The notes below the pieces were generated by a model. That model had not been told where the DNA came from, did not search any database, and worked only from the letters and a program-made list of their open reading frames with translations. Below are positions 753-10,701 of a DNA stretch of 64,000 nucleotides, piece after piece. The translations under genes were made by a program, and so were the position numbers. How positions within the stretch are numbered: position 1 is the first letter of the stretch; every line of letters starts with the position of its first letter. Source of the stretch: Escherichia coli. GTDB lineage: Bacteria; Pseudomonadota; Gammaproteobacteria; Enterobacterales; Enterobacteriaceae. The stretch lies in NCBI RefSeq assembly GCF_003334255.1, contig NZ_QOWU01000003.1. The stretch is one strand, 5' to 3'.

Positions 753-1533
753 AATCAGTAAAAAAGATATCACCCGTCTGGGCTTTCGTTCGTCGCTGCT
801 GCAAGCGAGCTTTAACTACGAAAGGATGCAGGCGGGCGGTTTTACCTGGGCGATGTTGCCGATCCTGAAAAAGATTTATAAGGACGACAAACCGGGCTTA
901 AGCGCGGCGATGAAAGATAACCTCGAATTTATTAATACCCACCCGAATCTGGTCGGATTCCTGATGGGGTTATTAATTTCGATGGAAGAAAAAGGAGAAA
1001 ACCGCGACACCATTAAAGGCCTCAAAGTGGCACTGTTTGGCCCAATCGCCGGGATTGGCGATGCGATTTTCTGGTTTACTTTGTTGCCGATTATGGCGGG
1101 AATTTGCTCATCATTTGCCAGCCAGGGAAACCTGCTGGGGCCGATTCTATTTTTCGCCGTTTACCTGCTTATCTTTTTCCTGCGCGTCGGCTGGACCCAC
1201 GTCGGTTATTCAGTCGGCGTGAAGGCGATCGATAAAGTGCGAGAGAACTCGCAGATGATTGCCCGTTCGGCAACCATCCTCGGGATCACGGTAATCGGCG
1301 GGCTGATCGCTTCGTATGTGCATATTAACGTGGTGACATCGTTTGCCATCGACAATACCCACAGCGTTGCGCTGCAGCAGGATTTCTTCGATAAAGTCTT
1401 CCCGAACATTTTACCGATGGCCTACACCCTGCTGATGTATTACTTCCTGCGGGTGAAAAAAGCGCATCCGGTGCTGTTAATCGGCGTGACTTTTGTGCTC
1501 TCTATTGTTTGTTCCGCATTCGGCATTTTGTAA
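742..1533 (+). CDS. agaD: PTS N-acetylgalactosamine/galactosamine IID component
   Basis: Internal ATG at 742 gives 263 aa starting MGSEISKKDITRLGF; IID-family membrane protein; longest ORF (595) is an upstream extension. Confidence 0.9.
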   Translation: MGSEISKKDITRLGFRSSLLQASFNYERMQAGGFTWAMLPILKKIYKDDKPGLSAAMKDNLEFINTHPNLVGFLMGLLISMEEKGENRDTIKGLKVALFGPIAGIGDAIFWFTLLPIMAGICSSFASQGNLLGPILFFAVYLLIFFLRVGWTHVGYSVGVKAIDKVRENSQMIARSATILGITVIGGLIASYVHINVVTSFAIDNTHSVALQQDFFDKVFPNILPMAYTLLMYYFLRVKKAHPVLLIGVTFVLSIVCSAFGIL

Positions 1534-2289
1534 ATGGAACGAGGCACTGCGTCTGGTGGTGCCTCTTTACTTAAGGAATTTCATCCTGTGCAAACCCTTC
1601 AGCAAGTTGAAAACTATACGGCGTTAAGTGAACGTGCCAGCGAATATTTATTGGCCGTGATCCGTAGCAAACCGAATGCCGTGATTTGCCTGGCGACCGG
1701 AGCCACGCCATTACTGACGTATCATTATCTGGTAGAAAAAATCCACCAGCAGCAGGTTGATGTCAGCCAGCTCACCTTCGTGAAGCTCGACGAATGGGTG
1801 GATCTGCCATTAACGATGCCAGGCACCTGCGAAACTTTCCTGCAACAGCATATCGTGCAGCCGCTGGGGCTACGTGAAGACCAGCTCATCAGCTTTCGCT
1901 CCGAAGAGATAAATGAGACAGAGTGCGAACGGGTAACGAACCTGATTGCGCGCAAAGGCGGTCTGGATTTATGCGTTCTCGGATTGGGGAAAAACGGTCA
2001 TCTTGGGCTGAACGAACCGGGAGAAAGCCTGCAACCGGCCTGCCATATCAGTCAACTTGATGCCAGAACACAGCAACATGAGATGTTAAAAACCGCGGGT
2101 CGCCCCGTGACTCGTGGGATCACCTTAGGCCTGAAGGATATTCTCAATGCCCGCGAAGTTTTGTTACTGGTGACTGGCGAAGGAAAGCAGGATGCGACAG
2201 ATCGTTTTCTCACGGCTAAAGTCTCTACCGCTATCCCGGCTTCATTTTTATGGCTGCACAGTAACTTTATTTGTTTAATTAACACCTAA
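1534..2289 (+). CDS. agaI: Galactosamine-6-phosphate deaminase/isomerase (NagB-like)
   Basis: 251 aa ORF, ATG immediately after agaD stop; NagB/6-phosphogluconolactonase fold. Confidence 0.9.
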   Translation: MERGTASGGASLLKEFHPVQTLQQVENYTALSERASEYLLAVIRSKPNAVICLATGATPLLTYHYLVEKIHQQQVDVSQLTFVKLDEWVDLPLTMPGTCETFLQQHIVQPLGLREDQLISFRSEEINETECERVTNLIARKGGLDLCVLGLGKNGHLGLNEPGESLQPACHISQLDARTQQHEMLKTAGRPVTRGITLGLKDILNAREVLLLVTGEGKQDATDRFLTAKVSTAIPASFLWLHSNFICLINT

Positions 2290-2689
2290 CCAGATGAAAA
2301 ATTTGCTCAAAATGTTTAAATTAACTTATGTAACAGTCACGCATTATATTAAATAACATTTGACTGGGTTGAACATAACGCCGATAGCAAAAGGAGTTAT
2401 GTTCAACAATTTAATTTTAGATATACATATAACTTGTTCTATTAATAAATCACCTCGTATTCTGACTCGCCCCCTGGCGCAGCAAAGTCAGGCATTTATA
2501 CTCTTTTGAATACATAGAAAATTGATATCAATATAATGAAAATATCAAATATTTGCATATAAATATAATCTTAAAGCTCAGTCTATTTAATGTTCAATGA
2601 AATATTTCTGCCTGTATAATCTTTAAAGATGTTGAACATATATTCACATTAAATATGATTATGTACTTGTTACAAGGATAAGGTTATAT
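2290..2689 (+). promoter_or_regulatory. AT-rich 400-bp intergenic/promoter region upstream of yraH fimbrial operon
   Basis: Very AT-rich with A/T tracts and no ORF; lies directly 5' of the fimbrial major-subunit gene. Confidence 0.5.
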
Positions 2690-3274
2690 ATGAATAAAGT
2701 TACAAAAACAGCTATTGCGGGCTTACTTGCGCTTTTCGCAGGTAATGCCGCTGCAACCGATGGTGAAATAGTTTTTGATGGCGAGATTTTAAAATCCGCT
2801 TGTGAAATCAATGACTCTGATAAGAAAATTGAAGTTGCTCTTGGTCACTATAATGCCGAACAGTTTCGTAATATTGGCGAGCGTAGCCCAAAAATTCCAT
2901 TCACTATTCCTTTAGTTAACTGCCCAATGACTGGGTGGGAGCACGATAACGGCAACGTTGAAGCGTCTTTCCGTCTATGGCTGGAAACGCGAGATAATGG
3001 CACCGTCCCTAACTTCCCTAATCTGGCAAAAGTAGGCTCTTTTGCTGGCATAGCGGCAACAGGTGTGGGTATCCGTATTGACGATGCGGAAAGCGGAAAC
3101 ATTATGCCACTGAATGCTATGGGCAATGATAACACGGTTTATCAGATCCCGGCGGAATCCAATGGTATTGTCAATGTTGACCTCATCGCTTACTACGTAT
3201 CAACCGTAGTTCCATCAGAAATCACCCCAGGGGAAGCAGACGCTATCGTTAACGTAACGCTGGATTACCGTTAA
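2690..3274 (+). CDS. yraH: Fimbrial major subunit-like protein
   Basis: 194 aa; N-terminal signal peptide (MNKVTKTAIAGLLALFAGNAAA); fimbrial subunit-like. Confidence 0.9.
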   Translation: MNKVTKTAIAGLLALFAGNAAATDGEIVFDGEILKSACEINDSDKKIEVALGHYNAEQFRNIGERSPKIPFTIPLVNCPMTGWEHDNGNVEASFRLWLETRDNGTVPNFPNLAKVGSFAGIAATGVGIRIDDAESGNIMPLNAMGNDNTVYQIPAESNGIVNVDLIAYYVSTVVPSEITPGEADAIVNVTLDYR

Positions 3275-3282
3275 TACGTTAG

Positions 3283-3317
3283 GGCGTTATCTGACCTGTC
3301 AGATAACGCCCTTTTCC
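3283..3317 (+). terminator. Intrinsic terminator/attenuator after fimbrial subunit gene
   Basis: Perfect inverted repeat GGCGTTATCTGAC-CT-GTCAGATAACGCC followed by CTTTTCC. Confidence 0.7.
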
Positions 3318-3353
3318 TTCCTCTTTCTCGTTGTATCAGGTTGAAAAATAACT

Positions 3354-4049
3354 ATGTCAAAACGAACATTCGCGGTGATATTAACCTTGTTGTGTAGCTT
3401 CTGTATTGGCCAGGCGCTTGCAGGAGGAATCGTTTTACAGCGAACGCGAGTGATCTATGATGCCAGCCGCAAAGAGGCTGCGTTACCTGTCGCAAACAAA
3501 GGCGCAGAAACGCCTTATTTACTGCAATCATGGGTAGATAATATAGATGGTAAAAGCCGTGCCCCATTTATTATAACCCCACCGCTATTTCGTCTTGAGG
3601 CTGGCGATGACTCATCACTGCGAATTATTAAAACAGCTGATAACCTGCCTGAAAATAAAGAGTCGCTGTTCTACATTAATGTTCGTGCCATTCCAGCAAA
3701 GAAAAAATCAGATGATGTTAATGCTAACGAGTTGACGCTGGTATTTAAAACACGGATCAAAATGTTTTATCGCCCCGCACACCTGAAGGGACGGGTAAAC
3801 GATGCGTGGAAATCACTGGAATTTAAACGTAGTGACCATTCACTCAATATATATAACCCAACTGAATATTACGTCGTATTTGCCGGACTGGCAGTCGATA
3901 AAACCGATCTCACAAGCAAAATTGAATATATCGCGCCCGGAGAACATAAACAGTTACCACTTCCTGCATCTGGCGGAAAGAACGTGAAATGGGCTGCGAT
4001 CAATGATTATGGCGGCAGTTCCGGGACAGAAACTCGTCCACTGCAATAA
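3354..4049 (+). CDS. yraI: Periplasmic fimbrial chaperone (PapD-like)
   Basis: 231 aa with signal peptide; PapD-family chaperone features. Confidence 0.9.
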
Positions 4050-4077
4050 AAAATATAAAAACACAGGTCATCAGGGA

Positions 4078-6594
4078 ATGCCACAACGACACCACCAGGG
4101 ACATAAACGCACACCGAAACAGTTGGCGCTCATCATCAAACGTTGTTTGCCGATGGTGCTCACTGGCAGCGGCATGCTTTGCACTACCGCTAACGCCGAA
4201 GAGTATTATTTCGACCCCATTATGCTGGAAACCACAAAAAGTGGTATGCAAACAACCGATCTGTCGCGTTTTTCAAAAAAATATGCACAACTACCAGGAA
4301 CTTATCAGGTTGATATCTGGCTGAATAAAAAGAAGGTTTCACAGAAAAAAATTACATTTACCGCCAATGCAGAGCAACTTCTGCAGCCACAGTTTACGGT
4401 AGAACAACTACGTGAGCTGGGTATTAAGGTGGATGAAATCCCGGCGCTGGCTGAAAAAGATGACGATAGCGTGATCAACTCGCTTGAACAAATCATTCCC
4501 GGTACAGCTGCTGAATTTGATTTCAATCATCAGCAACTTAATTTGAGCATTCCCCAAATTGCACTGTACCGTGATGCAAGAGGTTACGTCTCCCCTTCTC
4601 GTTGGGACGATGGTATACCAACGCTGTTTACCAACTACTCGTTTACAGGTTCTGATAACCGTTACCGCCAGGGCAATCGTAGCCAACGACAGTACCTGAA
4701 TATGCAAAATGGTGCTAATTTTGGCCCCTGGCGATTACGCAACTATTCCACATGGACACGCAACGATCAGACATCAAGCTGGAATACCATCAGTAGTTAT
4801 TTACAACGTGATATCAAGGCGTTGAAGTCTCAGTTGCTTCTGGGAGAAAGCGCCACCAGCGGCAGTATTTTTTCCAGCTACACCTTTACTGGCGTGCAAC
4901 TCGCTTCCGACGATAATATGTTGCCAAACAGCCAGCGCGGATTTGCCCCAACGGTACGCGGTATCGCAAACAGTAGTGCAATCGTGACTATCAGGCAAAA
5001 TGGTTATGTGATCTATCAAAGCAACGTGTCAGCGGGTGCCTTTGAAATTAACGATCTCTACCCCTCTTCCAACAGCGGCGATTTAGAAGTCACGATTGAA
5101 GAAAGTGACGGTACACAACGTCGCTTTATCCAGCCTTATTCTTCATTACCCATGATGCAGCGACCTGGGCATCTAAAGTATAGCGCGACCGCTGGACGCT
5201 ATCGCGCTGATGCAAACAGTGATAGCAAGGAACCCGAATTTGCTGAAGCCACGGCAATATATGGTTTGAATAATACTTTTACGCTGTATGGCGGCCTGCT
5301 CGGTTCTGAAGATTATTATGCGCTGGGGATCGGTATCGGCGGCACACTTGGCGCACTGGGCGCGTTGTCGATGGATATCAACAGAGCTGACACCCAATTC
5401 GATAACCAGCACTCTTTTCATGGCTATCAATGGCGTACGCAGTACATCAAAGATATCCCGGAAACCAACACCAATATCGCTGTCAGCTACTATCGCTATA
5501 CCAACGATGGCTATTTTAGTTTTAATGAAGCCAATACCCGCAATTGGGACTATAACAGTCGCCAAAAAAGTGAAATTCAATTCAACATCAGCCAGACAAT
5601 ATTTGATGGGGTAAGTCTGTATGCCTCCGGTTCGCAGCAAGACTATTGGGGCAATAACGATAAAAACAGGAATATCTCTGTTGGGGTTTCCGGCCAGCAA
5701 TGGGGAGTTGGTTACAGCCTGAATTATCAATACAGCCGCTACACTGATCAAAATAATGACCGCGCACTCTCTTTGAATCTCAGTATTCCGTTAGAACGCT
5801 GGTTACCGCGTAGCCGGGTTTCCTATCAGATGACCAGCCAGAAAGATCGCCCAACCCAACATGAAATGCGTCTTGATGGCTCACTGCTGGATGATGGTCG
5901 CCTGAGCTATAGCCTGGAACAAAGTCTGGATGACGATAACAACCATAACAGTAGCCTGAACGCCAGTTACCGTTCACCTTATGGCACCTTCAGTGCCGGA
6001 TACAGCTACGGTAATGACAGCAGCCAATACAATTACGGCGTTACCGGCGGCGTGGTTATCCATCCTCATGGCGTGACGCTCTCGCAATATCTGGGCAACG
6101 CTTTTGCGCTTATCGATGCTAACGGAGCATCTGGCGTGAGGATACAAAACTATCCGGGGATTGCTACCGATCCTTTTGGCTATGCAGTGGTTCCTTATCT
6201 CACAACTTATCAGGAAAACCGTCTCTCGGTAGATACTACGCAGCTGCCCGATAACGTCGATCTTGAACAAACAACACAGTTTGTGGTGCCCAACAGAGGT
6301 GCAATGGTAGCGGCGCGTTTCAACGCCAATATCGGTTATCGCGTACTTGTTACAGTCAGCGATCGCAACGGTAAACCGTTGCCCTTTGGCGCTCTTGCCA
6401 GCAACGATGATACGGGGCAACAAAGTATCGTCGATGAGGGCGGCATACTATATCTCTCTGGGATATCGAGTAAATCACAAAGCTGGACTGTACGCTGGGG
6501 AAATCAGGCAGATCAACAATGTCAGTTTGCTTTCAGTACACCGGATTCAGAACCTACAACCTCTGTATTACAAGGCACAGCGCAGTGCCATTAA
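4078..6594 (+). CDS. yraJ: Outer-membrane fimbrial usher
   Basis: 838 aa from ATG 4078 (MPQRHHQGHKRTPKQLALIIKR...); usher-family beta-barrel protein; longest ORF begins 25 codons upstream. Confidence 0.9.
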   Translation: MPQRHHQGHKRTPKQLALIIKRCLPMVLTGSGMLCTTANAEEYYFDPIMLETTKSGMQTTDLSRFSKKYAQLPGTYQVDIWLNKKKVSQKKITFTANAEQLLQPQFTVEQLRELGIKVDEIPALAEKDDDSVINSLEQIIPGTAAEFDFNHQQLNLSIPQIALYRDARGYVSPSRWDDGIPTLFTNYSFTGSDNRYRQGNRSQRQYLNMQNGANFGPWRLRNYSTWTRNDQTSSWNTISSYLQRDIKALKSQLLLGESATSGSIFSSYTFTGVQLASDDNMLPNSQRGFAPTVRGIANSSAIVTIRQNGYVIYQSNVSAGAFEINDLYPSSNSGDLEVTIEESDGTQRRFIQPYSSLPMMQRPGHLKYSATAGRYRADANSDSKEPEFAEATAIYGLNNTFTLYGGLLGSEDYYALGIGIGGTLGALGALSMDINRADTQFDNQHSFHGYQWRTQYIKDIPETNTNIAVSYYRYTNDGYFSFNEANTRNWDYNSRQKSEIQFNISQTIFDGVSLYASGSQQDYWGNNDKNRNISVGVSGQQWGVGYSLNYQYSRYTDQNNDRALSLNLSIPLERWLPRSRVSYQMTSQKDRPTQHEMRLDGSLLDDGRLSYSLEQSLDDDNNHNSSLNASYRSPYGTFSAGYSYGNDSSQYNYGVTGGVVIHPHGVTLSQYLGNAFALIDANGASGVRIQNYPGIATDPFGYAVVPYLTTYQENRLSVDTTQLPDNVDLEQTTQFVVPNRGAMVAARFNANIGYRVLVTVSDRNGKPLPFGALASNDDTGQQSIVDEGGILYLSGISSKSQSWTVRWGNQADQQCQFAFSTPDSEPTTSVLQGTAQCH

Positions 6595-6604
6595 GGATAA
6601 AAAA

Positions 6605-7696
6605 ATGAAAAGAGCGCCTCTTATAACAGGTCTTTTGTTGATATCCACATCCTGCACTTATGCCTCCTCAGGAGGGTGTGGAGCCGACAGCACTAGCGGT
6701 GCGACAAATTACAGCAGTGTGGTTGATGATGTTACGGTGAACCAGACAGATAACGTGACAGGACGGGAGTTTACCTCTGCAACGCTAAGTAGCACTAACT
6801 GGCAATACGCCTGTTCCTGCTCTGCGGGTAAGGCAGTTAAACTTGTCTATATGGTCAGCCCCGTACTTACCACCACTGGACATCAGACAGGATATTACAA
6901 ACTCAATGACAGCCTGGATATTAAAACCACATTACAGGCAAACGACATTCCAGGACTCACAACCGACCAGGTTGTCTCTGTTAACACCCGATTCACACAG
7001 ATAAAAAACAACACGGTATATTCTGCTGCAACCCAAACGGGTGTTTGCCAGGGTGATACGTCTCGTTATGGACCCGTTAATATTGGTGCGAACACCACCT
7101 TTACCCTGTATGTCACCAAGCCATTTCTCGGCTCGATGACCATTCCGAAAACGGATATTGCCGTCATTAAAGGCGCGTGGGTCGATGGAATGGGAAGCCC
7201 GTCTACAGGTGACTTCCATGATTTAGTCAAGTTATCGATTCAGGGAAATCTCACCGCCCCACAGTCGTGCAAAATTAATCAGGGCGATGTTATTAAGGTT
7301 AATTTTGGATTCATCAATGGTCAGAAGTTTACCACCCGCAATGCCATGCCAGACGGTTTTACTCCAGTAGACTTTGATATCACTTATGACTGTGGTGATA
7401 CTTCAAAGATTAAAAACTCGTTGCAAATGCGCATCGACGGTACAACTGGGGTAGTAGACCAGTACAACCTGGTCGCCAGGCGAAGAAGTTCAGACAATGT
7501 GCCCGATGTCGGTATTCGTATTGAAAATCTCGGCGGCGGAGTTGCAAATATTCCTTTTCAGAACGGTATCCTTCCCGTTGATCCTTCCGGGCATGGCACC
7601 GTCAATATGCGCGCCTGGCCAGTTAATCTGGTCGGTGGTGAGCTGGAAACAGGAAAATTTCAGGGCACAGCCACCATTACCGTCATCGTGCGGTAA
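6605..7696 (+). CDS. yraK: Fimbrial adhesin-like (tip) protein
   Basis: 363 aa from ATG 6605 ([22 protein letters not shown]...); signal peptide; last gene of the chaperone-usher operon. Confidence 0.85.
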
Positions 7697-8600
7697 AAGA
7701 AGACGTTGCGTTTTGATTAACGCAACGCTTCGGCACTGTTACCCCTGCTGCTCCAGCGCATAACTTATACAGCGCATTTTTCTTCACGCCGTGAATTTCT
7801 GCGGCCAGCGCCGCCGCTTTTTTCAGCGGCAGTTCTGCCTGTAGCAGCGCCAGCGTGCGCAGGGCATCGGCGGGTAAGTCTTCTTCCTGTGCTTTATGAC
7901 CTTCGACAATCAGCACCATTTCGCCTTTGCGACGGTTTTCATCTTCCTTTACCCACGCCAGCAGCTCGCCAACGGGCGCGCCGTGAATGGTTTCCCAGGT
8001 TTTGGTCAGCTCACGCGCCAGAACCACGTAGCGGGATTCGCCTAATACCGCAACGATATCTTCCAGGCTATCTAACAGACGGTGGGTAGATTCATAAAAA
8101 ATCAGCGTGCGCGGCTCCGCTTCAATGGCTTTTAGCGCATCACGGCGGCCTTTTGATTTGGCAGGTAAAAAGCCTTCGTAACAGAAACGGTCAGAGGGTA
8201 AACCCGCTGCGCTTAACGCAGTGATAGCAGCACACGGCCCGGGTAGCGGCACCACGCGGATCCCCGCTTCACGGCAGGTACGCACCAGATGGTAGCCAGG
8301 ATCGTTAATTAGCGGCGTTCCGGCATCGGAAACCAGCGCAATGTTTTGCCCCTCTTGCAGCTTCGCCAGCAGCGTTTCAGCTTTTTGTTGTTCGTTATGG
8401 TCGTGCAGCGCAAACAACCGGGCATTAATCCCAAAATGTTGCAGCAATAAACCGGTGTGACGAGTATCCTCGGCGGCAATCAGATCAACGGCCTGTAATA
8501 CCTCTAACGCACGCTGGGTGATATCCGCCAGATTGCCGATTGGCGTCGGTACAATGTAAAGCTGGCCCTGAGAATTATCCGCCGATTGGTGTTGTTTCAT
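7683..8600 (-). CDS. rsmI: 16S rRNA 2'-O-ribose C1402 methyltransferase; 3' end reads in a shifted frame in this window (305 codons instead of the expected 286)
   Basis: N-terminus [24 protein letters not shown]; tetrapyrrole-methylase-type SAM MTase; the +1 frame between about 7760 and 7783 leads to ...YALEQQG-TAA at 7739-7741, i.e. a 286-aa product. Confidence 0.85.
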
Positions 8601-8664
8601 TGTGTCGTCCGTATTGCCGATTTAATATTGAGCATTGCGTAAAAAAAATATCACTGGATACATT

Positions 8665-10701
8665 ATGGTACCCTCAACATTTTCTCGTTTGAAAGCCGCG
8701 CGTTGTCTGCCTGTTGTTCTGGCAGCCCTGATTTTCGCCGGTTGTGGCACCCATACTCCCGATCAGTCCACTGCTTATATGCAGGGCACGGCGCAGGCTG
8801 ATTCTGCCTTTTATCTTCAGCAGATGCAGCAAAGCTCTGATGATACCAGGATCAACTGGCAATTACTCGCCATTCGTGCACTGGTGAAAGAAGGTAAAAC
8901 CGGGCAGGCGGTTGAGTTGTTTAACCAACTACCGCAAGAACTGAACGATGCTCAGCGTCGCGAGAAAACACTGCTGGCGGTAGAGATTAAACTGGCGCAG
9001 AAAGATTTTGCTGGCGCGCAAAACTTGCTGGCGAAAATCACACCTGCCGATTTAGAACAAAACCAGCAAGCGCGTTACTGGCAGGCAAAAATCGATGCCA
9101 GCCAGGGGCGTCCTTCCATTGATTTACTGCGCGCGTTAATTGCTCAGGAACCGCTGCTTGGCGCGAAAGAAAAACAGCAGAATATTGATGCCACCTGGCA
9201 GGCGCTCTCCTCCATGACTCAGGAACAGGCGAATACGCTGGTGATCAACGCCGACGAAAATATTCTGCAAGGCTGGCTGGATCTGCAGCGCGTCTGGTTT
9301 GATAACCGTAACGATCCCGACATGATGAAAGCCGGGATCGCCGACTGGCAGAAACGTTATCCGAACAATCCGGGCGCGAAAATGCTGCCAACGCAGTTGG
9401 TTAACGTAAAAGCGTTTAAACCAGCCTCGACCAACAAAATCGCCCTGCTGTTGCCACTGAATGGCCAGGCAGCGGTATTTGGTCGCACTATTCAGCAAGG
9501 CTTTGAAGCGGCGAAAAATATCGGCACTCAGCCAGTGGCAGCTCAGGTAGCTGCCGCACCTGCCGCAGACGTAGCTGAACAACCTCAGCCGCAAACCGTG
9601 GATGGCGTTGCCAGCCCGGCACAAGCCTCGGTTAGCGATCTGACCGGTGAACAGCCTGCAGCCCAGCCGGTGCCTGTAAGCGCCCCGGCGACAAGCACCG
9701 CAGCGGTAAGCGCACCCGCAAATCCATCCGCAGAGCTGAAAATCTACGATACCTCATCACAACCACTTAGCCAGATCTTAAGCCAGGTTCAGCAGGATGG
9801 CGCGAGTATTGTGGTCGGTCCGTTGCTGAAAAATAACGTTGAAGAGTTGCTGAAGAGCAACACTCCGCTGAACGTACTGGCACTGAACCAGCCGGAGAAT
9901 ATCGAAAATCGCGTCAATATTTGTTACTTCGCGCTTTCACCGGAAGACGAAGCGCGCGATGCAGCGCGTCATATTCGTGACCAGGGTAAACAAGCGCCGC
10001 TGGTGCTGATCCCACGCAGTTCATTGGGCGATCGCGTAGCCAATGCGTTTGCGCAAGAGTGGCAGAAACTGGGCGGCGGCACCGTTCTGCAACAAAAATT
10101 TGGTTCCACCAGCGAATTACGCGCGGGTGTTAACGGCGGTTCTGGTATTGCTTTAACGGGTAGCCCGATTACTCTCAGAGCGACAACCGACTCCGGCATG
10201 ACGACCAACAATCCAACGCTGCAAACCACGCCAACCGATGACCAGTTCACCAATAATGGCGGTCGTGTCGATGCGGTGTACATTGTGGCAACGCCGGGTG
10301 AAATCGCTTTTATCAAACCGATGATCGCCATGCGTAACGGTAGCCAGAGCGGTGCAACGCTGTACGCCAGCTCCCGCAGTGCGCAAGGGACCGCTGGCCC
10401 GGATTTCCGACTGGAGATGGAAGGCTTGCAGTACAGCGAAATCCCGATGCTGGCAGGCGGTAATCTACCGTTAATGCAGCAGGCACTCAGCGCGGTGAAT
10501 AACGATTATTCACTGGCTCGCATGTATGCGATGGGCGTCGATGCCTGGTCGCTGGCAAATCATTTCTCACAAATGCGCCAGGTTCAGGGTTTTGAAATCA
10601 ACGGTAATACCGGAAGCCTGACGGCTAACCCGGATTGCGTGATTAACAGGAACTTATCATGGCTACAGTACCAACAAGGTCAGGTAGTCCCCGTCAGTTA
10701 A
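8665..10701 (+). CDS. lpoA: Outer-membrane lipoprotein activator of PBP1A
   Basis: 678 aa from ATG 8665 ([28 protein letters not shown] lipobox); TPR-like N-domain, Ala/Pro-rich linker. Confidence 0.9.

Follow-up and report, generated by a model that had tools for sequence, protein, structure and literature searches.

The yraHIJK chaperone-usher operon of Escherichia coli: an ordinary AT-rich, H-NS-bound upstream region and a probably functional hairpin behind the subunit gene

Phase variation is common among fimbrial operons. Differential decay of mRNA, or its selective processing and stabilisation, is documented for the fimbrial operons pap and CFA/I (PMC4423207), and FimR2 is a small RNA (sRNA) that derives from a 3′ untranslated region (UTR) in an RNase E-dependent manner (PMC9723502). 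The usher of the Escherichia coli yra operon has been assigned to the gamma-1 clade (PMC3032704). Passages of PMC5797941 that cite Korea et al. 2010 describe the operon as cryptic under laboratory conditions and functional from a constitutive promoter, and a passage of PMC12711010 citing the same work states that Yra "facilitates adhesion to bladder cells". Over-production of BolA raises yraH (PMC4337573), and yraH, yraJ and yraK are among the genes detected in phylogroup A/B1 isolates of uropathogenic E. coli (PMC4128348). Here, we analysed a stretch of 64,000 nt from E. coli (contig NZ_QOWU01000003.1 of assembly GCF_003334255.1), hereafter the window, to which all positions refer unless a comparison locus is named. 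The interval 2290-7696 is, in all likelihood, the catalogued chromosomal yraHIJK chaperone-usher operon of K-12-like (phylogroup A type) E. coli, and this is the best explanation of the interval as a whole. Both the AT-rich upstream DNA bound by H-NS and the hairpin that follows yraH are real, but ordinary for operons of this kind.

The interval was 100% identical to E. coli G1/2, in which the genes are annotated as yraH, yraI, yraJ and yraK, and a comparison with K-12 MG1655 over 9265 nt revealed 4 differences, of which 2, both substitutions, fell within 2290-7696. The window opens within the aga (N-acetylgalactosamine/galactosamine) cluster, where agaI (1534-2289) is followed by a 400-nt spacer, the genes yraH-yraI-yraJ-yraK, and the convergent rsmI with lpoA behind it. 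All four yra genes are on the plus strand. The major fimbrial subunit of 194 aa encoded by yraH (2690-3274) carries the Pfam Fimbrial domain PF00419 at residues 27-193 (E 9e-28) and a Sec-type signal peptide readable from the sequence, and yraI (3354-4049) encodes a PapD-like periplasmic chaperone of 231 aa (PapD_N, E 5e-41; PapD_C, E 1e-11). The outer-membrane usher of 838 aa encoded by yraJ (4078-6594) matched the PapC_N, Usher (E 7e-216) and PapC_C models; the longest open reading frame (ORF) begins at 4003 and the annotated start is at 4078. The product of yraK (6605-7696; 363 aa) is a predicted two-domain tip adhesin with a receptor-binding domain at residues ~21-205 and a pilin domain at 211-362. 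By Pfam, the locus thus comprises the two-domain PapD-like chaperone, the three-domain usher and the secreted PF00419 pilin that define a chaperone-usher system, with YraH as the pilin that polymerises, YraI acting as chaperone in the periplasm and YraJ as usher in the outer membrane. The original prediction for this DNA, made from the letters of the sequence, had named four co-directional genes for a subunit, a PapD-like chaperone, an usher and an adhesin-like protein as yraHIJK, and both Pfam and the annotation agreed with it.

The relationship of the operon to the long polar fimbriae (Lpf) was resolved with NCBIfam. The best matches were LpfB for YraI (E 1e-57) and LpfD for YraK, and YraJ matched a generic usher model with LpfC as a close second. 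The bit scores, however, were far under the curated cut-offs for LpfB (194.8 vs 360), LpfC (739.6 vs 1271) and LpfD (74.8 vs 412). Membership of the Lpf equivalogs was therefore rejected, and Yra is a relative of the long polar fimbriae rather than one of them.

A perfect 14-bp hairpin with the loop CCTG begins 7 nt past the yraH stop on the plus strand (3281-3312, with 3281-3294 pairing to 3299-3312), and 41 nt separate its end from the start of yraI; the hairpin is a candidate partial terminator and/or 3′ stabiliser. The yraH-yraI spacer folded with a minimum free energy of -25.3 kcal/mol (z = -5.4 relative to shuffled sequences), and none of 200 shuffles folded equally well. The hairpin ranked first among the terminator-like sites in 1400-9000, and no other perfect hairpin in the window reached its length; one further hairpin of 12 bp is present, and none appeared in 20 shuffles. 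With 7 of 14 pairs G-C and a 4-nt loop, it has the G+C-rich stem and short loop of a terminator. TTTT and a pyrimidine-rich tail follow (TTTTCCTTCCTCTTTCTC; 3312-3329, plus strand), conserved between E. coli and E. whittamii and T-rich on the sense strand only. This tail (TTTT and CCTTCC) passes the scan criterion of at least five T in eight, yet it is short: the run after the stem consists of TTTT only, with the first T paired, and continues as CCTTCCTCTTTCTC, so that the U-tract must be considered weak to moderate. The perfect hairpin had been predicted as a 13-bp stem with a T-run at 3283-3317; the hairpin itself was confirmed, and the stem proved to be 14 bp long and the T-run to shrink to those four residues.

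The 14-bp form belongs to the K-12-type allele. In all four variant E. coli alleles sampled, the substitution G3282C breaks one basal pair, and in three of the four G3298T alters the loop; the 12-bp core of the stem was unchanged in each of the five E. coli alleles compared. The terminator/promoter scan returned no promoter-like site between the hairpin and the yraI start, indicating that yraIJK must be read through the hairpin. Such read-through must occur, as the operon reportedly confers adhesion (Korea et al. 2010, cited in PMC12711010) and the cryptic operons of that study were driven by a constitutive promoter (PMC5797941), and the hairpin can therefore be at most a partial terminator.

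To compare the hairpin across species, orthologous loci were collected in one scan of species-representative genomes with YraI, which provided six other Enterobacteriaceae and, together with E. coli, seven loci. The YraI proteins were 90% identical to that of E. coli in E. whittamii, 68% in both Citrobacter sp. MGH106 and C. amalonaticus, 67% in an Enterobacteriaceae metagenome-assembled genome (MAG), 65% in Escherichia sp. MOD1-EC7003 and 58% in Franconibacter (Enterobacter) pulveris. As a separate observation, the yraH homologue of the Enterobacteriaceae MAG UBA5654 (comparison locus L007, 7350-7930) is split over two frames, which points to a pseudogene caused by a frameshift or to an error in the assembly.

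A strong hairpin was found directly after the yraH stop in all seven yraH-yraI spacers, with z from -2.5 to -6.3. The stems belonged to at least four unrelated sequence types, and E. whittamii retained the pairing of the E. coli stem by means of a G-U pair. Strong hairpins built from unrelated stems at the same position indicate selection on pairing and not on DNA sequence, which supports a role at the RNA level and speaks against an operator or a repeat. T-rich tails accompanied five of the seven hairpins, two of them canonical (TTTTTTC and TTTTATTTT). Among five sister operons of K-12, three also carried a strong hairpin in the spacer behind the subunit gene, namely elfA-elfD (z = -4.1), yadN-yadV (z = -3.4) and sfmA-sfmC (z = -2.0). 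Taken together, these comparisons support the post-yraH hairpin as an RNA-level partial terminator or 3′ stabiliser that is probably functional, and they lend backing to its earlier description as an attenuator.

A mechanism that would accommodate these features begins with transcription starting within the last ~70-170 nt of the agaI-yraH spacer. The 14-bp hairpin and its short U-tract just past the yraH stop would then end part of the transcripts, and the same hairpin may protect the 3′ end of the yraH message, whereas read-through would supply yraIJK. The expected outcome would be subunit mRNA in excess of chaperone, usher and adhesin mRNA, following the logic of differential decay in the pap and CFA/I operons. 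Several observations weigh against this reading. The U-tract is short (UUUU then CC), and a T-rich tail is missing from two of the seven orthologous hairpins, so that something other than termination may be what is conserved. The fimA-fimI hairpin is weak (z = +0.2) and annotated as FimR2, and yehD-yehC has none, making a post-subunit hairpin a common but not a universal feature. The yra operon is silent in standard transcript data sets, and we infer termination at the hairpin; moreover, one compilation lists the transcription unit as "yraHI" (PMC3946193), which would be unexpected for a strong terminator.

The short E. coli U-tract and the two orthologues without a tail would also fit a hairpin that is no terminator at all but a barrier to 3′ exonucleases, stabilising the yraH segment after RNase E has processed a full-length yraHIJK transcript. 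Consistent with this alternative, the spacer 3′ of the hairpin is AU/pyrimidine-rich and conserved, pap and CFA/I rely on processing and differential decay (PMC4423207), and RNase E processes the fimA-fimI spacer (PMC9723502). We nevertheless consider it doubtful as the full account, given that five of the seven orthologues carry a T-rich tail right after the stem, including the two canonical ones, and that the yra site passes the terminator-like scan. Termination and processing are, in any case, mutually compatible.

FimR2 is annotated between fimA and fimI in MG1655, a position equivalent to that of the yra hairpin, and the high stability of this hairpin could suggest that the yraH 3′ UTR is released as a stable trans-acting sRNA of the FimR2 type. 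Several lines of evidence make this very unlikely. Rfam contained nothing relevant: a scan of 1500-8800 by E-value returned only a chance match to BLV_package inside yraI (E 0.34), and the MG1655 annotation has no RNA at this place. No sRNA seed is conserved, given that the orthologues have stems of unrelated sequence. The yra loop lacks a GGA motif, unlike the CsrA-binding FimR2, and the operon is normally silent.

A perfect 14-bp palindrome might equally be an element of the DNA, either the operator of a dimeric transcription factor or a repeat resembling repetitive extragenic palindromic (REP) sequences or miniature inverted-repeat transposable elements, and not an RNA structure. The sequence was found once in each of 3281 E. 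coli genomes, and the window contains no further copy of its arms except for one chance match with 2 mismatches at 17449; being single-copy, the hairpin is no repeat element, and a dispersed or REP-type repeat was rejected. The orthologous palindromes occupy the same place with unrelated sequences, a pattern that fits selection on pairing and not recognition by a protein, and the T-rich tail is strand-specific. An origin as a DNA element is thus extremely unlikely, and a partial terminator or 3′ stabiliser acting in the RNA remains the preferred reading of the hairpin.

Upstream of yraH, the agaI-yraH intergenic region (2290-2689) had a GC content of 0.275 compared to 0.512 for the whole window, the lowest of any 400-nt stretch in the 64 kb (0.08% of 400-nt windows were as low), and contained 7 A/T tracts of at least 4 nt against a mean of 3.7 per 400 nt. 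The regions upstream of the orthologous yraH genes were equally AT-rich, with GC of 0.22-0.29 over 200 nt. The spacer is one of 78 published "promoter islands" (3285165_325), shows H-NS occupancy in the chromatin immunoprecipitation (ChIP) data of Kahramanoglou and Oshima, and is associated with genes predicted as foreign by four methods (PMC3661553). Genomic SELEX (systematic evolution of ligands by exponential enrichment) placed an HNS flag on a constitutive sigma-70 promoter in the same spacer (Shimada et al. 2014, PMC3946193). The striking AT-richness and the H-NS context proposed for these 400 nt were thus borne out, the former by the base composition and the A/T tracts and the latter by the published ChIP compilation and SELEX data. 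On the other side, the statement on H-NS repression in the relevant passage of PMC5797941 covers elf, sfm, yad and yeh and leaves yra unnamed, which counts against silencing by H-NS as part of our reading.

The term "leader", which the original prediction had applied to the entire 400 nt, was less apt, as most of the spacer holds no transcribed leader and its first part contains a likely agaI terminator. This is a hairpin with a T-rich tail on the plus strand (2368-2407; inverted repeat I4, 15 nt, 93% complementary) located ~80 nt past the agaI stop. The fold of 2290-2430 gave z = -3.5, and the 2368-2407 repeat is partly conserved in E. whittamii. The hairpin is probably the terminator of the aga operon and no part of the yraH leader.

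Two candidate promoters were placed in the remainder of the spacer, both on the plus strand. The published sigma-70 candidate TTGATA-17-TCAAAT (2523-2551; PMC3946193) is unconserved in E. whittamii. The second, TTCAAT-16-TATAAT (2593-2620), was derived from the alignments; its -10 element at 2615-2620, a TATAAT ~75 nt ahead of the yraH start codon, is retained in the orthologues. Between the two lies a conserved box, ATATAAATA (2557-2565, plus strand; followed by ..ATC..AAA), ~130 nt before the yraH ATG. Four of the seven orthologous loci contained the exact 9-mer, 129-133 nt upstream of the ATG, and a fifth had a copy with one mismatch at the same place; both the box and TATAAT stood at matching distances from yraH in comparison loci L005, L006, L008 and L011. 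The box was kept across genera even in alleles saturated at synonymous sites. It could represent an UP-like element, a nucleation site for H-NS or the site of an activator. That the regulatory DNA and RNA of yra hold controls not yet described, with the ATATAAATA box as the site of an activator or anti-silencer and the hairpin as a FimR2-like trans-acting sRNA, is a speculative and rather improbable proposal; if true, an activator or anti-silencer acting at the box would set the timing of Yra fimbria production. Small ORFs in the spacer encoded only 20-49 aa and none was supported, and the fold of the putative 5′ UTR (2620-2700) was no better than that of shuffles (z = +0.16).

The candidate promoters lie within 221 nt bounded by a perfect inverted repeat of 11 bp (2398-2408 / 2630-2640), an arrangement that invites comparison with phase switches, either an invertible promoter of the fimS type or a pap-like Dam/Lrp switch at GATC sites, in place of a simple H-NS-silenced promoter. 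The junction predicted for an inversion between the two repeat copies was searched in 5426 complete E. coli genomes, and the inverted form was found in 0 of 3358. The repeat is unconserved in E. whittamii, we estimate that chance alone would yield ~0.4 repeats of this kind in DNA this AT-rich, and no recombinase gene is adjacent; an invertible promoter of the fimS type was accordingly rejected. A pap-type Dam/Lrp switch requires two GATC sites, and it was excluded because 2290-2689 contains none. We therefore attach next to no probability to phase switching here and retain an H-NS-bound, AT-rich promoter region as the description of the spacer.

YraK was analysed in more depth, since Pfam assigned only the PF00419 domain at 211-362 and left the N-terminal 210 residues without assignment. 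By sequence, YraK matched one solved protein, LpfD (PDB 5AFO, E 1e-11), over both domains. An AlphaFold2 model built on 53 homologues had a mean predicted local distance difference test score (pLDDT) of 82.8. In a Foldseek comparison of this model with the PDB, LpfD was the best match (E 3e-21; 21% identity in the structural alignment), followed by FimH, CsuE, CupB6, PapG, FocH and CfaE, all full-length two-domain tip adhesins, and the lectin domains of F17-G and GafD matched the N-terminal half. The N-terminal domain was less conserved than the pilin domain in 52 of 52 YraK homologues (mean identity 38.5% vs 59.9%), as expected for a domain that binds a receptor. According to the model, YraK is a two-domain tip adhesin of LpfD/FimH architecture, and the structure prediction, proposed earlier as a check on this fold, recovered it with LpfD as the best match. 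In E. coli O157:H7, the yra region is ~360 nt shorter or interrupted by IS1203, and yraK is annotated as fragments; a machine-learning study of 2025 lists yraK variants among the predictors of O157 clinical outcome (PMC12711010).

The distribution of the operon bears on its origin. Of 5426 complete E. coli genomes, 3523 carried yra (with at least 80% of the interval in 3264) and about 35% lacked it; several of the carriers had insertion sequence (IS) insertions, and agaI and rsmI stand 49 bp apart in genomes lacking yra. In all six other Enterobacteriaceae, yraH-I-J-K is followed directly by rsmI and lpoA, with agaI on the other side in three. This conserved place beside rsmI-lpoA argues against a recent horizontal acquisition, and the initial label "horizontally acquired" is doubtful for an operon that Citrobacter, Franconibacter and other Escherichia likewise carry at rsmI-lpoA.

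A published reconstruction has the E/B1/A lineage of E. coli acquiring yra (PMC6896753), in line with a view of yraHIJK as a recently arrived foreign island in that lineage. The patchy presence and the 49-bp agaI-rsmI distance elsewhere would be compatible with such an island, as would the GC content of the operon (0.467 vs 0.54 in the flank), the prediction as foreign by four methods (PMC3661553) and the occurrence of a RelE/ParE gene pair at the same site in another strain. Yra-type operons nevertheless adjoin rsmI-lpoA in six other genomes, and the identities between E. coli and E. whittamii at four-fold degenerate sites (0.55-0.57 for yra and 0.67-0.74 for the flanks) are not far apart. 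On its left side, the presence/absence polymorphism begins within the final ~30 nt of agaI, where the alternative AgaI C-termini of the two haplotypes are diverged homologues; a clean insertion scar was consequently rejected, and the junction is silent on the direction of the event. We consider a recent island unlikely, as loss, or replacement of alleles, at an old syntenic locus with very divergent alleles fits better.

At this junction, the last ~10 codons of agaI (2259-2289) encode ...LHSNFICLINT before the stop in yra-carrying genomes and ...LHNYFTCMIDEMCRR before the stop in yra-less ones (L003; L004, 1027-1068). In E. coli ECNB21-M121 (L004, 1105-1877), genes for a RelE/ParE toxin and a helix-turn-helix antitoxin lie between agaI and rsmI; this pair in place of yra indicates that the agaI-rsmI junction takes different cargo by strain.

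In Escherichia sp. MOD1, the yra allele is saturated at four-fold sites (0.28-0.42) beside well-conserved flanks (0.63-0.85). The yra proteins of MOD1-EC7003 (L008, 7324-12336) are only 55-65% identical to those of E. coli, whereas RsmI (96%) and LpoA (94%) are typical of the genus. For YraH, YraI and YraJ, Citrobacter sp. MGH106 is closer to E. coli than is Escherichia sp. MOD1-EC7003. A divergent allele between genus-typical flanks suggests allele replacement at a fixed locus, which probably took place at yra. The short Xenorhabdus szentirmaii contig NZ_NIBV01000010.1 (L009, 2233 nt) carries yraH-yraI with 98-100% identity to E. coli and ~1.3 kb of DNA interrupting yraI; this contig is probably an E. 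coli contamination of the assembly.

Beyond the operon, a hairpin with a T-rich tail on the minus strand separates the convergent yraK and rsmI (7703-7728) and forms a terminator-like site, folding with z = -4.1 (plus strand) and z = -3.7 (minus strand); it would mainly serve as the rsmI terminator and possibly also as the end of the yra transcript. Two flanking genes differ from their K-12 forms. In agaC, position 478 is A where MG1655 has G, turning TGG (Trp) into TAG and creating an internal stop at 477-479 (...KAMPA-stop-LTHGF...); the gene is a pseudogene here, likewise annotated as such in G1/2, and intact in MG1655. In rsmI (minus strand, 7739-8600), an extra A at 7762 gives GCATAACTTATAC where G1/2, MG1655 and the yra-less strains have GCATACTTATAC. 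The resulting frameshift near the 3′ end replaces the last seven residues, YALEQQG, with a 26-residue tail and extends the ORF to 7683, overlapping the end of yraK. The extra A reflects either a mutation particular to this strain or an error in sequencing.

Little turns on the identification itself, as yraHIJK is one of 12 catalogued chaperone-usher operons of K-12 whose silencing context and gene functions were already known. What the present analysis adds is comparative support for selection on pairing in the post-subunit hairpin, support for an old rather than recent residence at the rsmI locus across Enterobacteriaceae, and the conserved upstream box, which could guide a search for the signal that induces Yra.

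Compared with described systems, yra most resembles Lpf (lpfABCDE of Salmonella and E. coli), a gamma-1 operon with the same order of subunit, chaperone, usher and adhesin genes, whose LpfD alone in the PDB matches YraK by sequence and also ranks first by fold. Unlike yra, Lpf has a fifth gene, lpfE, and a different chromosomal locus, and yra scores far under the Lpf equivalog cut-offs. Type 1 fimbriae (fimAICDFGH) share with yra the clade, the protein families and a structured RNA element right after the major-subunit gene, and FimH also ranks high among the fold matches of YraK. In contrast to type 1, yra has no FimB/FimE recombinases, no invertible fimS and no genes for FimF/FimG adaptors; the hairpin in the fim spacer is weak (z = +0.2) and that of yra strong (z = -5.4), and the two spacers have no sequence similarity. 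Like yra, pap and CFA/I have a stable stem-loop after the major pilin gene, and their assembly genes need longer transcripts (PMC4423207); differential decay is experimental in pap and CFA/I and inferred for yra. The PapB/PapI regulators and the Dam/Lrp switch of pap are absent from yra, whose spacer contains no GATC. Yra differs from the other cryptic operons of K-12 in comprising only four genes and in its absence from ~35% of E. coli genomes. It is otherwise like elf/ycb, yad, sfm and yeh, which also have AT-rich, H-NS-bound upstream "promoter islands" (PMC3661553) and are described, in the passages of PMC5797941 that concern them, as poorly expressed in the laboratory and functional from a constitutive promoter. 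The post-subunit hairpin is missing in yeh, but elf, yad and sfm share it with yra.

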